A stretch of DNA of 5,472 nt from a virus (Duplodnaviria; Heunggongvirae; Uroviricota; Caudoviricetes), in the IMG/VR virus record IMGVR_UViG_2740892370_000011. One strand, written 5' to 3'. Below the pieces are notes generated by a model, which searched no databases, was not told the DNA's origin, and saw nothing but the letters and a program-made list of their open reading frames with translations. The translations under genes and the position numbers were made by a program. Shown here piece after piece: positions 1 to 205 of the stretch; within the stretch, counting starts at the first letter, position 1, and each line of letters starts with the position of its first letter.

Positions 1-61
1 TAGTCATCCTGTTTACCTCTTTCTCAGGGAGTTTAGTCTCCAGGATTTCCGGGGCGGTTCA
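1..61 (-). mobile_element. Terminus (inverted repeat plus start of orfA) of an IS3-family insertion sequence, IS629/IS3411-like; the element continues beyond the window start
   Basis: Minus strand from 61 reads TGAACCGCCCCGGAAATCCTGGAGACTAAACTCCCTGAGAAAGAGGTAAACAGG-ATG-ACT. The TGAACCGCCCCGG terminus matches my recollection of IS629-type inverted repeats. A strong SD (AAAGAGG) precedes an ATG at 7..5 that runs off the window. The yeeJ reading frame ends exactly at this junction. Identity is from memory, not a search. Confidence 0.55.
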
Positions 62-205
62 CACACCTTGTGCTGCCGCAGCCATAGGGAACGCAAGTTG
101 AGTTATCAGGCAGATACCCGCAGTTAAGCGGCGTAGTTTAATTCCCATCCCGCATAAGATTTGTCGGTCATTTATTTCTTCTCCACTTCTCTTCTTCGTA
201 GCCAT
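59..205 (-). pseudogene. yeeJ: 5' fragment (48 codons) of inverse-autotransporter adhesin gene yeeJ, truncated by the IS insertion
   Basis: ATG at 205..203 with SD GGAAGG 7 nt upstream. The translation MATKKRSGEEINDRQILCGMGIKLRRLTAGICLITQLAFPMAAAAQGV matches my recollection of the YeeJ N-terminus and has a signal-peptide-like hydrophobic stretch. The frame stops at TGA 61..59, which is the first triplet of the IS terminus, whereas intact YeeJ is over 2000 aa. The position (next to asnT) fits K-12 gene order mtfA-asnT-yeeJ. Confidence 0.5.

Follow-up and report, generated by a model that had tools for sequence, protein, structure and literature searches.

The question raised by this locus is whether an insertion sequence (IS) found in the adhesin gene yeeJ was the event that inactivated the gene or one that came later. 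The stretch of DNA analysed, hereafter the window, comprises 5472 bp of a viral record (IMG/VR IMGVR_UViG_2740892370_000011; Caudoviricetes). On the minus strand at its left end it carries the first 48 codons of yeeJ, the signal-peptide region of an inverse autotransporter adhesin, followed by one end of an IS629-type element of the IS3 family. A first-pass annotation, made from the letters alone, had read this arrangement as clean pseudogenisation by an IS, with a possible effect on the biofilm or adhesion phenotype. The genome comparisons reported here point to a different order of events: the IS is very probably a second hit in a yeeJ that was already dead rather than the inactivating event, and no change in adhesion or biofilm formation would be expected from it.

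The whole window was found to be 100% identical to Escherichia coli 2015C-3163 (NZ_CP027219.1), and the rest of the IS could therefore be recovered from that genome, a segment of which (L001) was used to read beyond the window. Segments of strains UK_Dog_Liverpool (L002), 12009 (L005) and IAI1 (L006) were also used. The ATG at window position 205 on the minus strand opens a frame of 48 codons, MATKKRSGEEINDRQILCGMGIKLRRLTAGICLITQLAFPMAAAAQGV, which is ended by a TGA at 61..59. All 48 residues were identical to those of K-12 (C600) YeeJ (WP_010723107.1), and the 144 nt differed from the K-12 (C600) gene at two positions only, both synonymous. The 48-aa fragment alone gave no Pfam match, as expected for a signal-peptide region. 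The identification of a YeeJ-like signal-peptide frame cut after codon 48 was thus upheld, as was the remark that the stop codon is also the first triplet of the inverted repeat.

Only 61 nt of the IS fall inside the window. They start at the TGA that closes yeeJ (TGAACCGCCCCGG...; the longer read from the TGA onwards is TGAACCGCCCCGGAAATCCTGGAGACTAAACTCCCTGAGAAAGAGGTAAACAGGATGACTA) and include the left inverted repeat (window 61..37), which matched the right one at 22 of 25 positions, and a 5' leader with an AGAGG Shine-Dalgarno motif before orfA. The ATG of orfA lies at 7..5, 54 nt into the IS, and the window ends 7 nt into this gene. The orfA start predicted to follow immediately is therefore present, but a gap of 51 nt separates it from the TGA. 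In NZ_CP027219.1 the complete element is 1310 bp long (L001 10061 to 8752, continuing leftward off the window), is inserted between codons 48 and 49 of yeeJ, with which it is co-oriented, and ends in ...CCGGGGCGGTTCA. Its termini are TG...CA and its inverted repeats are imperfect (13/13, then 22/25).

At the insertion point the native site GGTGTGGTA has become GGTGTG[IS]GTGGTA, so that the GTG of codon 48 is duplicated. The flanks read ...CAAGGTGTG[IS]GTGGTAAAC..., compared to CAAGGTGTGGTAAAC in uninterrupted yeeJ. The second GTG copy (L001 8749-8751) lies at the other IS end, outside the window. A 4-bp duplication (TGTG) was considered and rejected, as the right-hand GTG is preceded by the A with which the IS ends. 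Megablast alignments with uninterrupted yeeJ reached window position 53, a chance extension into the inverted repeat (GTGGTAAACGCC versus GTGTGAACCGCC); reading of the sequences placed the true yeeJ/IS junction at 61/62. The first-pass annotation had suggested extending the sequence leftward, and the element of about 1.3 kb, a short target-site duplication and the remainder of yeeJ were all found there. A transposase and a second inverted repeat were present, and the N-terminus agreed with that of reference YeeJ.

One 122-nt probe spanning the left junction and a second spanning the right one were compared with 5426 complete E. coli genomes. Each junction was fully covered in the same 11 genomes, which were mostly labelled O103 or O103:H2, with one O121 and several without a serotype. 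Because both junctions occur in 11 independent genomes and flank a complete 1310-bp IS with a 3-bp direct repeat, the match is not due to chance. The same data bear on another reading of the junction, as an IS-mediated rearrangement scar (from inversion or deletion involving two IS copies) or as an artefact of assembling a repeat. Each genome holds 10-35 related IS copies, and such copies often undergo rearrangement or misassembly. Against this, yeeJ is collinear on both flanks (the remaining 6.9 kb of the gene continue beyond the IS), the direct repeat is perfect, the native yeeJ site is restored exactly once the IS and a GTG copy are deleted in silico, and both junctions, 1310 bp apart, recur in independently assembled genomes. 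Neither different sequences at the IS ends nor unlinked yeeJ fragments were seen, and a scar or artefact is extremely improbable.

When the IS and one GTG were taken out in silico, an extra A remained at yeeJ nt 230 (GCTGGAAATCGG versus GCTGGAATCGG). This change, GGAATC to GGAAATC at about L001 8665, lies outside the window, 85 nt past the IS insertion point. It shifts the frame at codon 77 and leads to a stop at codon 92, and the downstream part of yeeJ is flagged as 'frameshifted' by the Prokaryotic Genome Annotation Pipeline (PGAP). The reconstructed gene (7078 nt) aligned end to end with the uninterrupted yeeJ (7077 nt) with 129 mismatches and a single 1-nt gap. When the IS, one GTG and the extra A were all removed, the open reading frame (ORF) was open for 2358 codons, indicating that there are exactly two lesions in the gene. 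The uninterrupted yeeJ used as reference, from UK_Dog_Liverpool (L002 2077-9153), has an internal stop at codon 539 and is therefore itself a pseudogene.

The extra A (+A) was far more widespread than the IS. A 180-nt probe combining the empty IS site with the extra A was 100% identical in at least 60 genomes, including IAI1, O103:H2 strain 12009, O45:H2, O91:H21 and O113:H21. Of 2565 genomes bearing yeeJ, 208 matched a 70-mer centred on the extra A at >=99% (an exact match); no more than 16 of these matches were partial, so that the number lies at about 192-208. The other 2357 genomes showed at least one difference from the 70-mer, and the full-length examples listed among them span 69 nt and so are without the extra base. 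Over its first 400 nt, yeeJ of 12009 and of IAI1 was identical to the reconstruction, and the codon-48 IS junction was not present in 12009. Overall, the +A frameshift was approximately 18 times more widespread than the IS and included close and distant relatives with an intact insertion site.

Since +A occurs in about 200 genomes free of the IS, compared to 11 genomes with the IS junction, parsimony indicates that the frameshift is older than the insertion. An intact yeeJ frame before arrival of the IS was looked for with a negative result, the stop at codon 92 being found in the approximately 200 IS-free genomes. In the +A allele, the frame used by the downstream part is open from nt 148 only, with the first ATG at nt 193. 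An alternative start rescuing the allele was rejected as a source of functional adhesin, as the product from nt 193 would be without a signal peptide; an exported adhesin from this allele would not be expected. The +A allele appears to be an old and widespread null allele, and yeeJ was most likely dead before the IS arrived. A gene that was dead before the insertion leads to no expectation of a new phenotype, and the proposals of a clean IS-mediated pseudogenisation and of altered biofilm or adhesion were accordingly not borne out: the same gene carries, 85 nt downstream, a frameshift shared by IS-free genomes.

It could instead be argued that the IS was the primary inactivation of a functional yeeJ, altering adhesion or biofilm formation, and that the frameshift came later. 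The frame is indeed cut by the IS after codon 48, and what remains of the gene, the extra A aside, is a fully open frame of 2358 codons, which shows recent decay. This order of events is nevertheless improbable, because the identical +A allele with an empty site is found in about 200 genomes, among them the close relative 12009, O45:H2 and the distant B1 strain IAI1, compared to the 11 with the IS junction. It needs either an independent insertion of the same base on the same haplotype or precise excision of the IS in all the others. Several points do weigh against the preferred reading, with the IS as the second lesion. The order was obtained from parsimony on presence and absence rather than from a whole-genome phylogeny, and the frameshifted segment might conceivably have come by recombination after the IS insertion. 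Neutrality of the phenotype in these strains is deduced from the state of the gene, and the subtype name of the IS was taken from the literature and from the labels that PGAP gives to related copies.

With the IS as the later lesion, the course of events would be as follows. A single copy-out-paste-in transposition would have placed the 1310-bp IS629-type element between codons 48 and 49 of yeeJ, duplicating GTG, and the terminal TGA of the IS closes the yeeJ frame directly after the signal-peptide region. The distribution of the two lesions suggests one such event in an ancestor of the O103:H2-type sub-lineage, after the +A frameshift. By analogy with the family, transposition would proceed through a circular intermediate and require an OrfAB transframe protein, the product of a -1 frameshift that the ALIL pseudoknot stimulates. 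The insertion would thus be a second, neutral hit on an adhesin gene of 7 kb that was already in decay, with use as a clade marker.

The element recovered from NZ_CP027219.1 has the organisation of an IS3-family element. Its orfA (108 aa; L001 10007..9681) matched HTH_Tnp_1 with 47 bits and its orfB (295 aa; L001 9681..8794) matched HTH_21 with 65 bits and rve with 94 bits (Pfam). The two genes lie in 0/-1 frames and overlap at ATAATG, after an A6 run. On the NCBIfam model NF033516 'IS3 family transposase', orfB scored 311 bits compared to a cut-off of 160, and the ALIL frameshift pseudoknot RF01497 (Rfam) was found between the ORFs with 120 bits compared to a gathering score of 50. Between orfA and orfB, a programmed -1 frameshift signal is predicted.

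Compared to an O157 copy labelled IS1203 family by PGAP, the IS was 95.9% identical over 1310 nt without gaps, and compared to a fragment labelled IS629 family it was 96.7% identical over 790 nt, the label being that of PGAP and not of a reference element. In ISfinder practice, isoforms share at least 95% nucleotide identity with a named reference element. The name given by PGAP to the present element is 'IS3 family transposase' only. The earlier designation 'IS629-like' is a fair name. Subtypes of IS629 differ by 4-5%, IS1203 and IS3411 are isoforms of IS629, and duplications of 3-4 bp have been reported (Rump et al., PMC3271280); the approximately 96% identity and the 3-bp GTG duplication found here fit that divergence and those duplications. 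The element resembles IS629/IS1203/IS3411 of Shigella and of E. coli strains that produce Shiga toxin (STEC) in its length of 1310 bp, TG...CA inverted repeats, 0/-1 arrangement of orfA and orfB, ALIL pseudoknot stimulator, DDE (rve) transposase, 3-bp duplication and approximately 96% nucleotide identity to O157 copies. It differs in being a distinct subtype, with approximately 4% divergence from the IS1203-type copy of O157. Only 80 records contained copies with at least 99% identity to it. The 40 records listed among these were chromosomes or plasmids of O103:H2, O45:H2 or serotype-less strains, together with two labelled O121. A second, 100% identical copy is present in the same genome as the window match. 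Judged by these close copies, the element belongs to a subtype apparently amplified in O103:H2/O45:H2 STEC.

One genome with both yeeJ::IS junctions, NZ_CP193494.1 (WL1277), is labelled O121. Strains labelled O103 or O103:H2 share with it both these junctions and other IS positions (e.g., near 792 kb), and either a wrong serogroup label or an O-antigen switch would account for this.

RefSeq already lists a yeeJ pseudogene and an IS3 family transposase at this locus, and the kind of event is textbook. In that annotation the 5' remnant of yeeJ (L001 10062-10232, window 62-232) is a separate 'hypothetical protein' pseudogene with an upstream ATG at window 232, and the link between the two yeeJ halves is lost. 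In 4 of the 11 junction-bearing genomes the region of the left-junction probe is annotated with the IS transposase only.

Regulatory consequences of the insertion were also considered. Read-through from the yeeJ promoter might drive orfA/orfAB, or an outward IS promoter might re-express downstream yeeJ from the duplicated GTG. The IS is co-oriented with yeeJ, the intergenic region upstream of the gene is intact, the gap between the TGA and the orfA ATG is just 51 nt, and a GTG stands directly past the right IS end. However, translation restarted downstream would yield a product devoid of a signal peptide and would still run into the +A frameshift 85 nt further on, and a regulatory effect of this kind is very improbable. 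It is likewise very improbable that read-through from the presumed yeeJ promoter puts the IS transposase under the control of yeeJ regulators, making this copy a condition-dependent 'hot' donor; if true, the yeeJ-driven donor copy would contribute to the expansion of IS629 in the O103:H2 sub-lineage. The next gene after yeeJ encodes a family 9 glycosyltransferase and is on the opposite strand, so that no polar effect of the insertion is expected. In UK_Dog_Liverpool this neighbouring gene is split by IS1A.

Disruption of yeeJ by IS elements was found in other strains as well. In O103:H2 strain 12009, yeeJ carries two further IS629-type insertions elsewhere in the gene (L005 9099-10408 and 15700 onwards), and in IAI1 it carries an IS3 near the 3' end (L006 14508-15670). 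The insertions in 12009 and IAI1 are independent, and the dead 7-kb gene acts as a sink for IS elements. An intact yeeJ has been reported in only 35-40% of complete genomes, with disrupted copies in others (Martinez-Gil et al. 2017, PMC5595812; Goh et al. 2019, PMC6714894), and the common decay of the gene provides a 7-kb neutral target in which IS elements collect. As in the published disrupted alleles (PMC5595812, PMC6714894), yeeJ is here a neighbour of asnT, which it has been reported to adjoin (PMC5595812), and the allele adds one more to the disrupted ones. The published alleles involve mutations or deletions, whereas the present one combines a shared +A frameshift with lineage-specific IS insertions. 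IS insertions in yeeJ are not described in PMC5595812 or PMC6714894, and the terms 'insertion sequence' and 'pseudogene' are absent from both texts. A literature search on IS629 together with yeeJ returned only separate mentions of the two and nothing on this insertion.

Excision of the element is a further consideration, as O103:H2 is among the serotypes reported with the IS-excision enhancer (IEE), which promotes excision of IS3-family elements (PMC9397093). The insertion resembles IEE-reversible IS inactivation in STEC, such as lacZ::IS600 in O121:H19 (PMC9397093), in that an IS3-family element with an intact target duplication lies in a chromosomal backbone gene. Unlike in the lacZ::IS600 type, precise excision at yeeJ would leave the +A frameshift and the gene would not be restored.

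The features of the window are collected in the table. The arrangement mtfA-asnT-yeeJ is conserved and is present in the window.

Table. Features located in the 5472-bp window (positions are those of the window)
Feature	Position	Strand	Basis or remark
IS629-type (IS3 family) element, left end	1..61	minus	sequence, inverted-repeat alignment, orfA/orfB, rve, ALIL pseudoknot, NF033516
TGA ending the truncated yeeJ frame and starting the IS inverted repeat (terminal 5'-TG)	59..61	minus	sequence
GTG, one copy of the 3-bp target-site duplication (codon 48, Val)	62..64	minus	comparison with native site
yeeJ 5' fragment, 48 codons, signal-peptide region of inverse autotransporter adhesin	62..205	minus	100% aa identity to K-12 YeeJ residues 1-48
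asnT-yeeJ intergenic region, intact, reading towards IS orfA	206..518	minus	presumed location of the yeeJ promoter
tRNA-Asn (asnT), conserved upstream neighbour of yeeJ	519..594	minus	locus comparison
mtfA	695-1492	minus	upstream of asnT
tRNA-Ser	1586-1675	plus	
Tyrosine integrase of the prophage by tRNA-Ser (serU)	1703-2753	minus	annotated as frameshifted in 2015C-3163 and 12009
Prophage 'exonuclease' gene	3015-5472	minus	L001 13015-15486; runs off the right window end

Two genes of the prophage integrated next to tRNA-Ser were noted as well. The integrase ORF in the window is 341 aa long and ends 25 nt short of the annotated end, and the prophage may be unable to excise. The 'exonuclease' gave a partial match to exodeoxyribonuclease VIII (NF007259), with 272 bits compared to a cut-off of 1269; its true start lies 14 nt past the window, and the listed ORF of 744 aa is short at the N-terminus. 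An IS600 copy lies in the same prophage just past dicB (L001 16061-17217, outside the window), representing another IS3-family element active in the genome.

These findings indicate that the insertion matters little in itself, as it alone predicts no change in adhesion or biofilm formation in a gene that was already frameshifted, and they show that the first lesion visible in a pseudogene is not necessarily the inactivating one. The insertion, found in 11 of the 5426 complete genomes, is usable as a marker for one O103:H2-type sub-lineage. It adds to the picture of yeeJ as an often-decaying adhesin gene that gathers IS elements in STEC.
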